A stretch of 64,000 bases of DNA from Vicinamibacterales bacterium (GTDB lineage Bacteria; Acidobacteriota; Vicinamibacteria; Vicinamibacterales; UBA8438), in the NCBI GenBank assembly GCA_965261285.1, contig OZ253457.1, positions 2,089,396-2,153,395 on the forward strand. Direction: 5' to 3'. Position 1 is the stretch's first letter. Each line of letters starts with the position of its first letter. The translations under genes and the position numbers were made by a program. Below are positions 9,434 to 64,000 of this stretch, piece after piece. The notes beneath the pieces are model-generated. The model was not told where the DNA came from. It was given only the letters and a program-made list of their open reading frames with translations, and made no database searches.

Positions 9434-10303
9434 ATGACATCGCTTCGTCAACGCATGCTCGAAGACATGCAGGTGCGGCAGCTGTCGCCGCGCACCCAGG
9501 AGACGTACGTCGAGACCGTGGCCCGGTTCGCTCGCCACTTCGGCCGCTCTCCGGCGTGTCTCGGTCCAGACGAGATCCGCGCCTACCAGGTCTACCTGAC
9601 CAACGAGCGCCGCTTGGCGCCGAGCTCGCTGGTCGTCGCCGTCTCTGCGCTCCGCTTCCTCTATCGGGTCACCCTTCGGAAGCGGTGGGCCTTCGACGAT
9701 GTGGTCCCCGTGCCTAAGAAGCCCCGCTCCTTGCCGGTCGTGCTCAGCCGCGACGAGGTGAAGCAGTTCCTCGACGCCATCAAGGCCGCCAACCATCACG
9801 CCATCCTGACCACGTGCTACGCCGCCGGCCTCCGCATCTCCGAGGCCGTCCACCTCACGGTGTCCGCCATCGACAGCCAACGGATGGTTCTCCGCATCGC
9901 GCAGGGCAAGGGGCAGAAGGACCGCTACGTGATGCTCTCGCCGAAGCTGCTCGAGGTGCTGCGCGCCTGGTGGCAGATCGACCGGCCACGGCACTGGCTC
10001 TTTCCCGGCGAGCGTCCGGAGAAGCCGATCACTCGCAAGGCGGTCCAGCTTGCCTGCAAACGCGCCGTCAGACGCGCGGGGCTCACCAAGCCGGTTTCCC
10101 CGCACGCGCTCCGCCACGCGTTCGCGGTCCACCTCCTCGAGGCGGGAACCGACCTGCGCACGATTCAGCTCCTGCTCGGGCATCGGAGCCTGCAGACCAC
10201 GGCCAACTACCTGCGGGTCGCGACCTCCAAGGTCTGCTCGACCGCCAGTCCGCTGGACCTCCTCCCGCAGCCTGTACCGGAACCGGCCCCGGACATCGCC
10301 TGA
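9434..10303 (+). CDS. Tyrosine recombinase / phage-type integrase
   Basis: Start at MTSLRQRMLEDMQVRQLSPRTQETYV. Catalytic region with GLRISEA, HALRHAFAVHLLEAGTDLRTIQLLLGH and TTANYLRV (R..HxxR..Y pattern). Confidence 0.85.
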   Translation: MTSLRQRMLEDMQVRQLSPRTQETYVETVARFARHFGRSPACLGPDEIRAYQVYLTNERRLAPSSLVVAVSALRFLYRVTLRKRWAFDDVVPVPKKPRSLPVVLSRDEVKQFLDAIKAANHHAILTTCYAAGLRISEAVHLTVSAIDSQRMVLRIAQGKGQKDRYVMLSPKLLEVLRAWWQIDRPRHWLFPGERPEKPITRKAVQLACKRAVRRAGLTKPVSPHALRHAFAVHLLEAGTDLRTIQLLLGHRSLQTTANYLRVATSKVCSTASPLDLLPQPVPEPAPDIA

Positions 10304-10312
10304 GCGACGGCC

Positions 10313-11522
10313 GTGCCACGCGCCGCGCTCACCGTGGCGGAGGTCTTCCGCCGCTACGGTGACACCTTCCGAGTCCACGCCGGGGCCGCCCTCTCCACGG
10401 CGCAACGCCGCGTGATGACGGCCATCGAGCAGTGCCGCACCGCCGCCCTCGGCGGCCATGTCGAGCAGTGTGACCATTGCGGCCATCGGCGCGTCTGGTA
10501 CAACTCCTGTCGCAACCGGCACTGTCCGACCTGTCAGTCGCTGGCCCGCGCCGCCTGGCTCGAACAGCGCCGGGCGGACCTGCTGCCCACCGAGTACTTC
10601 CACGTCGTCTTCACCGTGCCCCCGGCGGTCGCCGAGATCGCCATCCAGAACAAGGCCGTCGTCTACGGCCTCCTCTTCCGGGCCGTCGCCGAGACGCTGC
10701 GCACGATCGCCGCCGACCCCCGTCACCTCGGCGCCGAGATCGGTTTCTTCGCCGTGCTGCACACCTGGGGTCAGACGCTCGTCCATCACCCGCATCTGCA
10801 CTGCGTCATCCCGGGTGGGGGGCTCGCGACCGACGGCAGCGGCTGGGTTGCCTGCCGTCCCGGGTTCTTCCTGCCGGTCCGGGTCCTCTCTCGCTTCTTC
10901 CGCCGTGTCCTCCTCGAGGCGCTACAGGACGCCTTCGTGGCCGGACAGCTACGTTTCGCCGGCCGGCTGCAGCCCCTCAACGACCCTCGCCGCTTCGCCG
11001 AGCATCTCCGCCCGGCCCGCCAGATCGAGTGGGTCGTCTACGCGAAGCGGCCCTTCGCCGGCCCCGAGCAGGTTCTCGACTACCTCGGCCGCTACACCCA
11101 CCGGGATCGCCATCGGCAACCAACGCTTGTGCAGCCTCGACGCCGGCGCCGTGCGCTTCCGCTACACCGACTACCGCCGGGCCGGCGCGTCTCGCCAGAA
11201 GACCATGACGCTGTCGGCGACCGAGTTCATCCGCCGCATGCTCCTCCACGTGCTCCCGCCCGGCTTCCACCGCATTCGCTACTACGGCTTCCTCGCCAAT
11301 TGCACCCGCCGGCAGAAGCTCACCGAGTGCCGGCGGTTGCTGTCGGCGCCGCCACCACCGCCCGAGCTGGCCGACCGCGCCGTCGCCGACTATCGGGACC
11401 GCTACGAGGCGCTGACCGGCCGCTCGTTGCGGCGGTGCCCCCGGTGCGACGGCGGAAACATGCTCGTCGTCGACCACCTCGCCGGTCAGCACGCGTCTCC
11501 CGCTATCCTGGATTCATCGTGA
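10313..11522 (+). pseudogene. IS91-family transposase with a +1 frameshift
   Basis: N-terminal zinc-finger block (CDHCGHRRVWYNSCRNRHCPTCQ), HUH-like FHVVFTVP, and HTWGQTLVHHPHLHCVIPGGG. The frame breaks after YLGRYTHR at G-run 11103-11105. It continues in ORF 10458..11522 as IAIGNQRL...FHRIRYYGFLAN. Confidence 0.8.
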
Positions 11523-12085
11523 CGACCCCACCGACGCCCGCCAGCCACCGCCCGACGCTCCCGGTGCTCCCGGGCCGGTCGATGTGCGTCTCGGACGCCT
11601 CACCACCGCCGCGGGACGGCTCTCGTCGCCACCCGCACCGACCATCGTTGCCCGGCACTTCCACGCACCACCCCGTGACCGGCATCCCGGCCGCACCTCG
11701 CGACCATGCAACGCCCATAGGCGAGCGGCGGAGCTGCGGTTCAGTCCAATCCAATCTTGAGTCACCGGCGCGGTGACACGCTCTACTACTTACCGACCGT
11801 CGTTGCCGCCGCGCCGCCGACCCAAGAATGCTCTGCATTATGGGACACCGTTGCGTCCGCTCAAGGGCGACCCGCATTCTGGACGAACGTCCACCAACGC
11901 GTCGAAGGAAACGCGGCTTCGAGAGCATCCCGACTTAACACCCGGATAGGGGTGGGGCAGTTGGCCAGCGCTCTGTCCGTCCGGCTCCTGAGTCACTCCG
12001 GGAGCGCGCGCGGCAACTTCGCGTTGGGGGGCGCCCCGGCGGACCAGCGCTGCAGAGGCGGGAGGGCTACCGAGACGACGTGATT

Positions 12086-59975: not shown

Positions 59976-62585
59976 TCAGAACTCCAGGGGCTGGCAGGGG
60001 CCGCTGGCGGTCTCGGTCCGCGATCGCTCGCGCCCGTCGACCGCCACGACGTCGGACGCGCGATAGAATGTCAGCGCGAGCCCCCGCGTGCTGCGGCACA
60101 CCGGCTCGGCGGGCTCGACGGGCTCGGCCGGCTCGGCCTCGGCCGAATCGTCGGGCTCGACCTCCTCGACGATCTCCACCGGCGCTCCCTCCATCTCGTA
60201 GCGCCCCTCGGCCTCATGGTACACGAGAGCCTCGCCCGTCGCCCATCGGTCGTCCAGGCGCAACTGCACGGCGCCGGTCGAGGCCAGCCGGTCCAGGGTC
60301 CGGCCGTCCGGCTGCAGGAAGACCTCGATCGTCTCGGCCGCGAGATCGCCGTGGTCGGAGCGGAGGACGGCCGCGCCCTCGTAGAGGGCATGCCGGAGCT
60401 CGTCGTCGTAGGCGAAGCTGCCCGCGGTGGCGTCGGTGCGTGCGACGACGCTCTCTCCCGTCTCCGCGTCGATGCGCACGATCTGGATGGTCGTTCGCGC
60501 CGACCCGCTGATGGAGAGGCCCCCGGTGGCGTGGTCGATGGTGATGGCCTCACCCTCGAAGCTCGTGTTGCCCTGCCACATCCGGACCTGACCGCCGTAG
60601 GTGACCTGGCGCGAGTCGTTGTCGTAGTCCAGCGTATCGGCCCGGATGTTGATTCTCTGCGTCCGCTCCATGAGGGCGGGCACCCTGTCCTCGTCGTCCC
60701 CGCCCCGGCCGTCGCCGGGCGGAGCGAGGACGGTCTGCACGCCGCCCGACCCCGACACCCTCGACCCGTCCAGGGCGACCTCGAGACGCCCTCCCGCCTC
60801 GATGGTGCGGTCGCCGTCGACGAGGATCGCCGGCGGGCCGGCGTCGGCGTCCGGCGAAGGCCCACCGTCCGGCGAAGGCCCACCGTCCGGCGAAGGCCCA
60901 CCGTCCGGCGAAGGCCCGCCGTCCGGCAAGGGCTCACCGTCCGGCGAAGGCTCACCGTCCGGCAAGGGCTCACCGTCCGGCAAAGGCTCACCGTCCGGCG
61001 AAGGCTCACCGTCCGGCAAGGACTCGCCGTCCGGCAAGGGCTCGCCGTCCGGCGAAGGCTCGCCGTCCGACGCGGACTCGCCTTCCGACGAGGATCCAGC
61101 CCTCGGCAGAGAATCGGCGCTCGGCGAGAGCGTTATCGTCCCCTCCAGCAGGTCGTAGGCCGCGCTGACCGCCTCGGCCCGGCGGGTCTCGTCCTCGAAC
61201 CGGACCCCGCCGAAGAACCGCACGTCCAGCAGGCCGATCAGCCCCCGGCCCACACCGGCCTCGAACCGCTCGGCGCGGACGGTCCGGGTGACCGCCGCCT
61301 CGCTCGCCGATGCCTCGTGCCGCTCGCGATACGCGACCCCGCCGTCCAGGCTGATCGCGTTCAGTCCCGTTTCGGGGGTCCCGGTGGCGGTGAGCGTCCG
61401 GGCGCGAATCTCCTGGCGGGGTTCGCCGGGACTCACGGGAAGCTGCAGGAATACGCCGCCGCCAGCGTCCAGTCCGACGACCTCGGCCCGGCCCGGCGCC
61501 ATGAGCACGTCCATCGTGTCGCTCTCGATCCGCGAGCCTTCCCCGCCGTCCGTTCCCACCAGGTCCACGACCGACTGCCCGGTCAGGACGACCCGCTGGA
61601 GCTGCCGCGTGGCCGGGTCGAACGCCAGGGTGGTCTCGTCCGCCGCCGATTCGCGCAGCCCCCCGTCGCCCGCGGCGGCGGAACGAATGCGGACGCCCCC
61701 GAGCAGCTCCATCGACTCGAGCGCGTTCTCGCCGTCCCCGAAGTACGCGGTCGCCGCCTCGGCGGCGATGGTCAGATCGCCGGTCCGGATGCTCGTTCCC
61801 CCCTCGAAGCGCATGTAGCGGTCGGCGTCGGCGAGGGTGACGTGCGGGGCGTCGACGTCGACCGCGGCCCGGTCCGCGTCGCCGGTCAACCGCACGCCGG
61901 CGGCGCCGTCGAGGGTGATGACGCCCCGCTCGCGGTCCTGAACGACGTCGTTCCCGAACGCCTCCAGGCCGGCGCGGGCCAGGGTCGTCACCCCGCCGGG
62001 ATCGCTCATGGTGACGACGTTGCGGGCTTCGCTGTAGCTGGCGTCGCCGGTCCGGGCGGCCAGGCCGCCGGCGTCGGCGAGGCGCACGTCGCCGCTCACC
62101 GTGAAGTCGCCCTGCCCCTCCTCGACCGACAGCTCCGAGGCGCTCATCGTGAAGCCGTCCCGGTCTCCGCGCGGCGGCACGGTCACGTCGACGCCGCCGA
62201 AGAACCGCATCGACCCGTCCGCGTAGGTCGACTGCCACGGGGCTTCGAGCCGGAAGATCACCACGTCGCCGTCGCTCCGGACGAACTCGATGCCGGCGCT
62301 CTGGCTCACCGCCTCGGGGTCTGCCCGATCGACGGCGCGGGCCTCCGTCGATTCCCTGCGCTCGCGCATGCCGGTGACGAGGAAGGCCGCGAAGAGGGCC
62401 AGCCCGGCCGCGATGCCGAGCCGGGCCGCACGCTGCCATCGGACGGGCCGACGGCGCCGGCGCGCGCCCCCGGAGACCCCCGCGGGGGCCGTCGCCGGGG
62501 CCGGCCGCGCTTCGCCGGCGGAGCCCGGGACCGCGGGCGCGTCGGGCCCGGCCTCCGACCGGTCGGGTTGGTGATCCACGTTCAT
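59976..62585 (-). CDS. Large membrane-anchored LptC/LptA (OstA-like) multi-domain protein
   Basis: An N-terminal anchor ([17 protein letters not shown]) followed by repeated OstA-like beta-jellyroll-type segments. The C-terminal part resembles LptA ([36 protein letters not shown]..., [25 protein letters not shown]). The position before lptB supports the call. Start ATG at 62585, or TTG at 62615. Confidence 0.65.
60849..61083. repeat. ~13 x 18-bp in-frame tandem repeat inside the LptC/A-like gene
   Basis: GTCCGGCGAAGGCCCACC and variants, encoding ([18 protein letters not shown])n between two OstA-like halves. Confidence 0.85.
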
Positions 62586-62609
62586 CACTGTATCGAGCTT
62601 GCGCGGCGT

Positions 62610-62878
62610 CGGCAATCCGGCGGCGCGCGGGGGACGGTTCGCGTGTGCGTCTCACACCCGCCCGGAGGCACGGCAATCCGCGGGCGCGCGGAGGGGCGCG
62701 TGACGGTGGGCCGGCTGCCGGGGTGATCCCCCGGCAATCCGCGAGCGCGCGGAGGGGCGTGGTACGGCCGCCGAACATCCACCGTCTCGACGCGGCAATC
62801 CGCGGGCGCGCGGAGGGGCGCAGCGCACCGTGGTTACCGGCGAAGTGGTCCGGCCATCCCCGGGCGCGCGGAGGGGCG
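62610..62878. CRISPR. Short CRISPR-like array: 5 repeats of 28-29 nt, 30-34 nt unique spacers, 61-bp period; no cas genes in window
   Basis: CGGCAATCCGCGGGCGCGCGGAGGGGCG at 62671 and 62793, with one substitution at 62732. Degenerate copies at 62610 and 62851. The repeat contains the stem TCCGCG-GGCG-CGCGGA. I could not align the spacers to each other. Confidence 0.5.
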
Positions 62879-62961
62879 CCCATGCCCCGCGGGCGCGGCC
62901 GCCGCGAGACGCCCCGCGGGGGACCGGTCGGGACCGGCGCGGCGTGTAGTACCATGAACGC

Positions 62962-63207
62962 GTGCAGGAACCACTCACGCCGGTCATCATCGAGCTGGCG
63001 GAGCCCGCCACGGAGGAGATCACCGTCGCCGACATCCTGATCGGCGCGTTCAGCTTCGCCGGCGTCCTGTTGCTGGTGGCGGTGGGGCTTGCGGTCCTCT
63101 TCGCCGGCGGCCTCATCGGGCTCCGGCGGCTGCGACCGGAGAACGCCATCAACGGCGAGACCGCCAACCAGACCAGCCTGGGCCTTCACCTGCCCCCGAA
63201 TCCGTAG
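62962..63207 (+). CDS. Hypothetical small membrane protein
   Basis: GC3-rich ORF with one clear TM segment (ILIGAFSFAGVLLLVAVGLAVLFAGGLIGL). No family recognised. Confidence 0.4.
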   Translation: MQEPLTPVIIELAEPATEEITVADILIGAFSFAGVLLLVAVGLAVLFAGGLIGLRRLRPENAINGETANQTSLGLHLPPNP

Positions 63208-63326
63208 CCCCGGCAGCGCCGGCCGCACCCACCTGAAGCTGCATCCTGCTCGACCCTGGTGTAACGCGCAGCCCGCGGTTCGGCGTCGTCGCCGCCGGCC
63301 CCGCTCGCCGCCCCCCCCCCCCCCGA

Positions 63327-63354
63327 GGAGTCGGCGCCGCTCTACGGAGGCTCC
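63327..63354. repeat. REP-like palindromic element copy (degenerate) overlapping the recJ stop
   Basis: GGAGTCGGCGCCG-CTCTA-CGGAGGCTCC, immediately preceded by a C14 homopolymer (63311-63324). Confidence 0.45.
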
Positions 63355-64000
63355 TGCCCGGCGGGCGCCTCCGATTCGTCTCCACGTGCGGCCGGCCGGA
63401 TGTCCGCCACCGACAACTCGACGGTGCGCTCGCCCCGCCAGGTGTTCTCGGTCAGGTGGAACGCCAAGTCGAGCGCGTCCCCGTGGCGCCGGACGAAGTC
63501 CGCCCGGTCGGCCATGCGCCAGGCGACCGCGCGGAACACCCGTCCCTGCTGCCGGACCCGCATCGCGAGGTGCCGCGACTTCAGCACGCGGGGGCCGTCC
63601 GCGAGGGCCAGCTCCCCGGTATGGAACACGGGCCGGGGATTGCCCGCGCCGAAGGGCTCCATCGCCCGCAGCCCCGCCATCATGCGGGGCGTGATGGCGG
63701 CCAGCGGCAGGCGGCCGTCGATGCGGAGCCGCGGCATGAGCTGCTCGGGGCCGAGCCGGTCGTCGGCGAACGCGGTGAGCCGGCGCCGCAGCTCGGCGAG
63801 GCGGTCGGCCTCGATGGTGACGCCGGCCGCGTGCCGGTGTCCGCCGTACTTGGTGAACAGCTCGCCGCAGTGCTCCAGGGCCGCGAGGAGATCGAACCCG
63901 GGGATGCTGCGGCCGGAGCCGTAGGCCCGGTCTCCCTCCACCGCGAGAACGACGGCGGGACGATGAAAGAGGTCGACGAGCTTCGAGGCGACGATGCCGA
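63342..64000 (-). CDS. recJ: Single-stranded-DNA-specific exonuclease RecJ, C-terminal part (5' end outside window)
   Basis: SGRSIPGFDLLAALEHCGELFTKYGGHRHAAGVTIE, EPFGAGNPRPVF, and a C-terminal OB-like region. The frame stays open to the window edge (...IVASKLVDLFHRPAVVLAVEGD). Confidence 0.85.
   Translation of the reverse strand, partial: GIVASKLVDLFHRPAVVLAVEGDRAYGSGRSIPGFDLLAALEHCGELFTKYGGHRHAAGVTIEADRLAELRRRLTAFADDRLGPEQLMPRLRIDGRLPLAAITPRMMAGLRAMEPFGAGNPRPVFHTGELALADGPRVLKSRHLAMRVRQQGRVFRAVAWRMADRADFVRRHGDALDLAFHLTENTWRGERTVELSVADIRPAARGDESEAPAGQEPP

Follow-up and report, generated by a model that had tools for sequence, protein, structure and literature searches.

A five-repeat CRISPR array with type I-E geometry beside the start of an lptA-like gene, possibly born in place from native sequence

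How does a CRISPR array come to lie beside the start of a row of housekeeping genes, with no cas gene near it? The natural origin of new CRISPR arrays is largely unknown. Type I-E Cas1-Cas2 cuts its site in a staggered manner, and repair leaves a new spacer inserted and the repeat duplicated. Off-target integration by the E. coli enzyme pair is described as able to spawn new arrays (Nivala et al. 2018, via PMC7054753, PMC6698737 and bioRxiv 10.1101/148544). In such neo-CRISPR arrays, as presented in those sources, a non-CRISPR sequence is duplicated around an integrated spacer and more spacers may follow; Cas1-Cas2 was over-expressed in the laboratory, and the support that these accounts give from natural genomes is so far circumstantial. 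In this study we analysed a window of 64,000 nucleotides from a Vicinamibacterales bacterium, in which five short direct repeats stand between an lptA-like gene and a small divergent gene.

Our reading, to which we assign a probability of roughly 0.55, is that this is a real CRISPR array, if a very small one, with the dimensions of type I-E, which arose by CRISPR adaptation and was born in place. The components of this statement differ in strength. It is very probable that CRISPR adaptation produced the array, and, given that, an origin in place rather than by import is the favoured alternative, with some reserve. Use of the array for interference today seems doubtful; it probably lies idle at present, with service in trans as the most that can be supposed. 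As its maker we infer a type I-E Cas1-Cas2, whose cas genes lie or lay elsewhere. The features of the region, in window coordinates, are these:

59976 to 62585, minus strand: LptA/OstA-like gene of 869 aa with PF03968 and its ATG at 62585 (Pfam, ORFs)
62586 to 62609, minus strand: block between the lptA start and R1, conserved in alignment
62610 to 62637, minus strand: R1, the degenerate repeat at the trailer end and the oldest, plus-strand sequence CGGCAATCCGGCGGCGCGCGGGGGACGG (direct reading, repeat search)
62638 to 62670, minus strand: S1, 33 nt, the oldest spacer, common to several lineages
62671 to 62698, minus strand: R2, a consensus copy
62699 to 62731, minus strand: S2, 33 nt, seen only in the window's species and L007
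62732 to 62759, minus strand: R3, off the consensus by a single G-to-A change in the loop
62760 to 62792, minus strand: S3, 33 nt
62793 to 62820, minus strand: R4, a consensus copy, from which strains L002 and L005 have lost 2 nt
62821 to 62850, minus strand: S4, 30 nt, the newest spacer, with a 109-nt MITE-like insertion in L007
62851 to 62878, minus strand: R5, the leader-proximal repeat, with two mismatches (CGGCCATCCCCGGG...)
62879 to 62961, no strand assigned: leader-side flank, containing CCCCGCGGGCGCGG (62885-62898) inside a long imperfect palindrome
62962 to 63207, plus strand: gene for an 81-aa membrane protein, GTG start
63342 to 64000, minus strand: 3' part of recJ, with DHHA1 and RecJ_OB domains

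Direct reading and a repeat search agree on five direct repeats of 28 nt, starting at 62610, 62671, 62732, 62793 and 62851 with periods of 61, 61, 61 and 58, and thereby bear out an earlier interpretation made from the window's letters and open reading frames (the sequence-only reading). The consensus is CGGCAATCCGCGGGCGCGCGGAGGGGCG. R2 and R4 are identical and R3 departs from them at one position, so that three of the five repeats lie within one mismatch of the consensus; R1 and R5 are degenerate, R1 more so, again as that reading had it. Four copies occur in the 64-kb window at two mismatches or fewer, where the chance expectation from 100 dinucleotide-preserving shuffles of the window is 0.00, and there is no further copy elsewhere in the window at three mismatches or fewer. 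The spacers measure 33, 33, 33 and 30 nt. No pair of them is more similar than shuffled sequences are, allowing for 15 comparisons, which upholds the claim that they are mutually unrelated; the first spacer as originally delimited had taken in one base of the repeat and needed correction. At least three near-identical direct repeats of 23-47 nt in regular spacing, and unique spacers of similar length, are generic properties of CRISPR arrays, and both are found here.

An internal stem of 6 bp, which had been proposed for the repeat, is predicted on both strands with a 4-nt loop (-15.4 and -10.2 kcal/mol). In the sense (minus) orientation the repeat can be written (G/A)CGCCCC-TCCGCG-CGCC-CGCGGA-TTGCCG. 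When the whole array is folded as one RNA the z-score is -1.2, and in the structure of minimum energy a separate hairpin is seen for only one repeat out of five, which says little for a sequence of 75% GC; the G+C content of the window is 71%. Tandem Repeats Finder did not report the array, as would be expected because unique spacers separate the repeats. Rfam gave no CRISPR-DR match over the array region even at E <= 10, and none of relevance window-wide at the gathering threshold. A repeat within a protein-coding sequence was considered and rejected, since the long ORFs over the array do not carry the GC3 signature of the local genes and the indels of relatives ignore the reading frame.

The array fills most of the 376-bp gap between the lptA-like gene and the 81-aa gene. 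The flanks are those first described, the lpt operon to the left and recJ to the right, with the small gene between. That the array adjoins a probable essential-gene start also holds, the distance from R1 to the lptA-like ATG being 24 nt. This gene heads the row lptA-lptB-rpoN-hpf-rapZ, and its strand is the one inferred to be the crRNA sense strand. On the other side, the small gene has a conserved promoter block (GTCGGGACCGGCGC.GCGTGTAGTACCAT), which falls within the leader-side flank. The GTG start of that gene is only 6 nt past TACCAT, and judged from this spacing the gene is probably leaderless.

The geometry had been likened to that of type I-E arrays, and the likeness extends to the period of 61 bp, a repeat of 28-29 nt and a spacer of 32-33 nt, a GC-rich repeat with a central 6-bp stem and 4-nt loop, and a degenerate trailer-end repeat with polar growth at the leader end. 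It is strengthened by the recurrence of the same 28/33 (or 29/32) unit with independent spacers in sister lineages. A BLAST search of the array against 72,556 plasmids gave weak matches, with E-values near 1. The two top matches examined, L044 and L045, proved to be arrays on Streptomyces plasmids, each beside a complete type I-E cas operon (cas3, casA, casB, cas7e, cas5e, cas6e, cas1e, cas2e). These arrays have a period of 61 and the repeats GGGACCATCCCCGCGGGCGCGGGGAGCAG and GGGCTCATCCCCGCGGGCGCGGGGAGCGG, which share the core GCGGGCGCG with the window repeat, at the plasmid E-values near 1 just given. They also contain the 14-mer CCCCGCGGGCGCGG, which is identical in the leader-side flank of the window at 62885-62898. 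Some differences should be set against this. Relative to canonical type I-E repeats, the hairpin of the window repeat is shifted by 2 nt towards the 3' end, with a tail, TTGCCG, of 6 nt in place of an 8-nt handle; by analogy, Cas6e cleavage of the window repeat would leave the 6-nt handle TTGCCG. Furthermore, and unlike type I-E loci, the window has no cas operon within 64 kb, only five repeats, and a repeat that is native to the locus.

Comparison with related loci gave the decisive evidence on how the array grew. Some 30 such loci, together with 12 sequencing runs, made up the comparison set, from sponge-associated Vicinamibacterales. The window itself was assigned to this group (Acidobacteriota) by exact look-up of the 81-aa protein and by scanning species genomes with proteins as guides. 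Divergence from the window at third codon positions is 4-13% for L018, L019, L026 and L029, and 4-10% for the first three alone. L019 and L047 have one repeat followed directly by the right-hand flank, so that the leader-side flank of the window comes straight after the lone copy. L037 has one repeat and the first 9 nt of S1. L026 has two repeats with S1 and then an aberrant insert. In L039 two repeats with a period of 61 surround a different 33-nt spacer and S1 is absent; L018 is a derivative of this form from which 9 nt of the spacer have been deleted. Among the sequencing runs, which were of sponge and marine origin, the X11 contigs read R1-S1-R2-Sx-R-leader with an Sx of 33 nt, the X16 contigs read R1-S1-R2-Sz-R-leader with an Sz of about 31 nt, and the X20 contig ends S1-R-leader with no second spacer. 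The region is prone to repeats, and L026 shows a plain tandem expansion of a neighbouring GC-rich motif.

At least seven distinct inserts of 30-33 nt are thus present at this site, each beside a 28-bp copy of the repeat. This constancy of size fits what would be expected of a ruler-type integrase. Nivala, Shipman and Church reportedly found in 2018 that the duplication has the length of the repeat of the system concerned. Turnover of the inserts is polar, as it is in CRISPR arrays, with trailer-end spacers shared and leader-end spacers differing. S1 is common to the window, L026, L037 (as the 9-nt remnant), X11, X16 and X20, and the window and L026 copies differ at 1-2 of 33 nt, which is about the neutral rate. 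The spacers beyond S1 are lineage-specific, being S2-S4 in the window, Sx and Sz in the two runs, with the aberrant insert of L026 in the same position. Since the shared S1 stands next to lptA and the variable spacers are on its far side, the leader is placed from 62879 onwards and the minus strand is taken as the sense strand. The sequence-only reading had also preferred the minus strand. The Streptomyces arrays agree. Their position is downstream of cas2, and the strand that was aligned is the opposite one, so that in these cas-adjacent arrays too the orientation corresponds to a minus-strand sense in the window.

The repeat itself appears to be native to the locus. When the intergenic regions of 15 lineages are aligned, two conserved blocks are seen to flank a variable centre. 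The left block is CACTGTATCGAGCTTGCGCGGCGTCGGCAATCCG, the end of which is the first 10 nt of the repeat. The right block, GTCGGGACCGGCGC.GCGTGTAGTACCATGA, is where the small gene has its promoter region. The sequence CGGCAATCCG is kept in every relative having the small gene. Single-copy homologues of the repeat are found in L019, L047, L029, L028, L023, L021 and others, and array-less relatives can be aligned over the full 28 nt, as in L029 (CGGCAATCCGTGGGCGTGGGGGGCCGGG). In distant relatives without the small gene the recJ stop abuts the lptA start, and there GTCGGCAAC encodes the recJ C-terminus, ..VADIRQAR followed by the stop, with CGGCAA within those codons. The first 6-7 nt of the repeat thus go back to the former 3' end of recJ and are older than any array at this site. 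We regard the repeat as native DNA; an array acquired from outside would not start with such sequence. As in neo-CRISPR arrays, what has been duplicated is a native sequence which is single-copy at the same site in relatives. Single-repeat forms such as L019 could nevertheless be collapsed arrays rather than the ancestral state.

From these observations a course of events can be proposed. A native single-copy stretch of 28 bp by the lptA start would have served as an integration site for a Cas1-Cas2 encoded elsewhere in the genome. This 28-mer would have included the old recJ 3' remnant and carried a GC-rich 6-bp inverted repeat, beside a flank that was itself repeat-like. In the first event S1 would have been inserted and the 28 bp duplicated, through staggered cuts 28 bp apart and their repair. 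Each integration would add a spacer of about 33 bp and a 28-bp duplication, and later integrations would always have taken place at the leader-proximal copy, at the end facing the small gene. The outcome would be that the unit on the lptA side was kept while lineages came to have one, two, three or five repeats and differing leader-side spacers. By growing away from lptA, the array would also have spared the conserved block in which the lptA promoter probably lies. It is possible, then, that the locus records a natural and datable array birth, in which type I-E Cas1-Cas2 adopted a fortuitous repeat-like 28-mer in the lptA-lptB-rpoN promoter region and relatives keep the steps from one copy to five; this fuller account is put forward tentatively, with a chance that we place somewhat short of even.

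A possible lptA promoter can be suggested within the conserved block and R1. It would have TTGCCG, the reverse complement of the CGGCAA of R1, as its -35 element, and after 17 nt the -10 element TACAGT (62592-62587, minus strand). This candidate matches 8 of 12 consensus positions, and a GTG lies 8 nt beyond TACAGT. A promoter and terminator scan returned no site at the threshold of the tool, TTGCCG-17-TACAGT included.

An alternative to an array that is now idle is one that is fully functional and served in trans, with a distant cas operon processing the repeats and the four spacers in use today. Spacers have been gained in several recent lineages, which indicates that adaptation machinery recognises the site; the predicted repeat hairpin is stable, and the sense strand is co-directional with lptA, which would make read-through transcription possible. 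The state of the array within the window's own species speaks otherwise. The same array is present in many independent short-read and long-read assemblies from several studies, and its four spacers are identical in all assemblies of the species, the differences being point changes and small indels. Some of the indels are in repeats, such as the 2-nt deletion in R4 listed above and a 1-nt deletion in R1 of L003 and L008. L007, a slightly more distant strain, has kept S2-S4 with several repeat changes and the 109-nt insertion in S4, and L010 has a longer element in S4 with the same right end as that insertion. Between the window and L007 the repeats differ at 8 of 112 positions and the spacers at 7 of 94, so that the repeats are no better conserved than the spacers. 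Indels in the repeats and this lack of stronger constraint argue against present function, and the pattern as a whole suggests that the array has been frozen since before the strains of the window's species diverged and is now idle. The predicted handle is also of atypical length.

Neither array RNA nor targets of the spacers were found. The spacers had no credible match in 50,697 phage records or in the 72,556 plasmids, sponge-symbiont viruses being poorly sampled, and no viral contig in IMG/VR was matched by seed patterns for six spacers. Self-matches in the window and related loci were orthologous spacer copies only. Sponge metatranscriptomes X12 and X13 held no contig of the array, and no array words occurred in X12, X13 or X25; the same metatranscriptomes also lack lptA contigs, so that the absence of the array says little. 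Only the small gene was covered (62974-63295), and standard libraries lose RNAs of 61 nt. Taking both sides together, we consider service in trans with all four spacers in use improbable, but worth keeping in mind.

It is also conceivable that the array is what remains of a horizontally acquired type I-E locus, the cas genes of which were lost and the array of which was trimmed to between one and five units by recombination between repeats. The array of Listeria RliB is an example of an orphan array. Orphan (cas-less) arrays in general are described as common (Zhang and Ye 2017, PMC5294841). Like the present array they are short, far from cas genes and stable within a species, and the single-repeat L019 and L047 may be read as collapsed arrays. 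Losses do occur at this locus, as in L037, with only 9 nt of S1, and in L018, where 9 nt of the spacer are gone. Orphan arrays, however, are usually leftovers or duplicates of cas-associated arrays with the same repeat, and no second array with this repeat was found by exact patterns in GTDB species representatives, JGI metagenomes or IMG/VR. The GTDB scan for the exact repeat core, which gave 0 matches, is a weak null because the copies of relatives are 1-3 nt off the pattern. Matches to a degenerate core in JGI metagenomes were rejected as chance, being seven singletons all in unrelated coding DNA.

The cas genes themselves would be expected to leave traces under such a history. As was first noted, the window has no cas gene: about 45 ORFs were scanned with Pfam, which identified housekeeping genes (Tol-Pal, LptF/G, ParAB, metK, the aspartate pathway and T2SS E/F), and at the left end of the window transposases, an integrase and LRR/reprolysin proteins. 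In a protein search with Streptomyces Cas1e, the best 120 of 5816 matches were all Cas1e of the Streptomyces type. The gene order dnaE-recJ-small gene-lptA-lptB-rpoN is unbroken across the relatives, with no cas remnant or pseudogene fragment in the loci examined. Against a remnant it may further be said that the repeat starts with native sequence older than any array, and that the array went on gaining spacers on the leader side once the lineages had separated, at 2-10% divergence. For this, the integrase must have been available without local cas genes. We regard a decayed import as an unlikely explanation, more so than service in trans.

A third possibility is that the array is not CRISPR at all, and that the repeats are regulatory or structural elements of a divergent promoter region, such as protein-binding sites or hairpins, which arose by slippage or templated insertion in GC-rich DNA. 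Such an origin would be in keeping with the tandem expansion in L026 as a sign that the region is repeat-prone, with the possible role of the leading 6 nt of the repeat as the lptA -35 box, and with the outcome of the searches made, in which cas genes, targets and crRNAs were not found. Tandem duplication is insufficient, however, because it would have copied the spacers together with the repeats, and these are mutually unrelated; S1 is only 1-2 nt different between species, and duplicated spacers therefore had no time to diverge beyond recognition. Nor does this explanation account for at least seven independent inserts which are all of 30-33 nt and each flanked by a 28-bp duplication. Most relatives are without extra copies, which are thus not needed for expression of lptA or the small gene, and constraint on the repeats is no stronger than that on the spacers.

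The sequence-only reading had itself allowed for two alternatives of this kind. A different class of repeat that mimics CRISPR geometry is now unlikely. The other was a REP-like element. REP and BIME sequences resemble the present repeat in being GC-rich, palindromic and intergenic, but the copies in the window are direct and not scattered, and the spacers between them are unique and of constant length. No scattered copies at five mismatches or fewer were found outside this site in 412 kb comprising the window and related loci, and the only other copies in the set at that level are the metagenome singletons L011-L015, in unrelated coding DNA. Within the DNA covered, a REP-like element is thus refuted. 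A non-CRISPR origin is accordingly very improbable. An assembly or sequencing artefact can be dismissed, as it is refuted by the independent short-read and long-read assemblies and by the best-matching run, in which the array lies in contigs at a depth of 74 with zero differences.

We return to the preferred reading, that of a type I-E-like array born in place. The array is closest to the laboratory neo-CRISPR arrays and to genomic orphan arrays. Compared with the former it is natural, it lies between housekeeping genes, it has a sister series of one, two, three and five repeats, and its integrase is deduced rather than supplied. As a natural series from one to five copies at a housekeeping locus it is unusually clear. 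For annotation it means that an essential LPS-transport operon has an array on its own strand, only 24 nt from where it starts, and is not disturbed by it; routine pipelines would file such an array as orphan or questionable. Should the genome prove to be without cas genes, the constant 33-bp inserts and 28-bp duplications would need a new explanation.

Within one clade, whose members are only a few percent apart, the locus offers a single-copy site, intermediates and a form with five repeats, and the sequence requirements for adoption of an array site could be read off this series. If the reading presented here is true, this would be a rare natural case of a CRISPR array born in place, and it would mean that off-target integration makes new heritable arrays in nature and would show what an adopted site needs.

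The region at window 62586-63400 was compared with its counterparts in L030 and L032-L035, five loci from more distant relatives. The recJ end lies about 10 nt from the lptA start in these relatives, whereas in the clade of the window some 750 bp separates the old recJ end from lptA. This segment takes in the array site and the small gene, along with a C-terminal tail that is new to recJ. It is bordered by two diverged copies of a piece of about 15 bp from the old recJ 3' end, and on this sequence comparison it has the look of an old insertion accompanied by target duplication. The features concerned are:

62603-62616, copy of the old recJ 3' end (GCGGCGTCGGCAAT), left flank of the segment
62962-63207, plus strand, gene for an 81-aa protein with one hydrophobic segment
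63311-63325, about 15 consecutive C residues separating the small gene from recJ
near 63398, copy of the old recJ 3' end (CCGGATGTCCGCCAC), right flank of the segment

The 81-aa protein matched no Pfam family. Its homologues, in 47 clusters, are all close ones, and those whose genome could be traced come from Vicinamibacterales relatives. In sponge metatranscriptomes the small gene is the sole feature of the region covered by RNA contigs (62974-63295). A conserved TACCAT stands 6 nt upstream of its GTG, which suggests that the mRNA is leaderless and strongly expressed.

In L026, a sister lineage, the reverse complement of approximately 5200-5850 of the locus (complete chromosome OZ242323.1) corresponds to window 62885-63210. 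Here the GC-rich motif lying on the array's right, CCCCGCGGGCGCGGCCGCCGCGAG, has grown to about seven tandem copies, and the final 115 bp or so of the small gene, together with its stop codon, is present at least three times. These expansions could represent either real hyper-variability or a problem of long-read assembly. The length of the C run differs among assemblies; the run has very high k-mer depth in one sequencing run, and one RNA contig stops just short of it, followed by AAAAAAGAA.

Within the array, the comparison of window R2-R5 with the four repeats of L007, a slightly more distant strain, revealed that the CCCCGG variant (as against CCGCGG) is confined to R5 in the window but occurs in all four repeats of L007. 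The CGGCCAT variant belongs to R5 of the window, whereas L007 has it in the fourth repeat. The different placement of these variants suggests that the repeat copies have exchanged sequence by gene conversion. L007 also carries a 109-nt element (L007:161-269), bounded by terminal inverted repeats of 9 bp (GGACAGTGA...TCACTGTCC), inside its counterpart of the newest spacer, S4 (62821-62850). A longer element in a further related locus (L010:1-97) has the same insertion point and an identical right end (..CGATCACTGTCC), so the short element has the appearance of a MITE that arose from the long one. No further copies were found in the window or the fetched related loci.

The neighbouring LptA-like gene contains a repeat of its own, forming a repeated-peptide linker in the protein, and L031 has a related repeat at the matching position:

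60811-61094, minus strand, 18-bp tandem repeat (12-16 copies)

Separately, the left end of the window (1206-11776) holds mobile and symbiosis-type genes:

DDE transposase
tyrosine integrase adjoining an IS91-type Y2 transposase
two proteins with leucine-rich repeats, of which one is a fusion with a reprolysin-like metalloprotease
Big_2 protein

Eukaryote-like proteins of the leucine-rich-repeat, reprolysin-like and Big_2 sort are typical of sponge symbionts.
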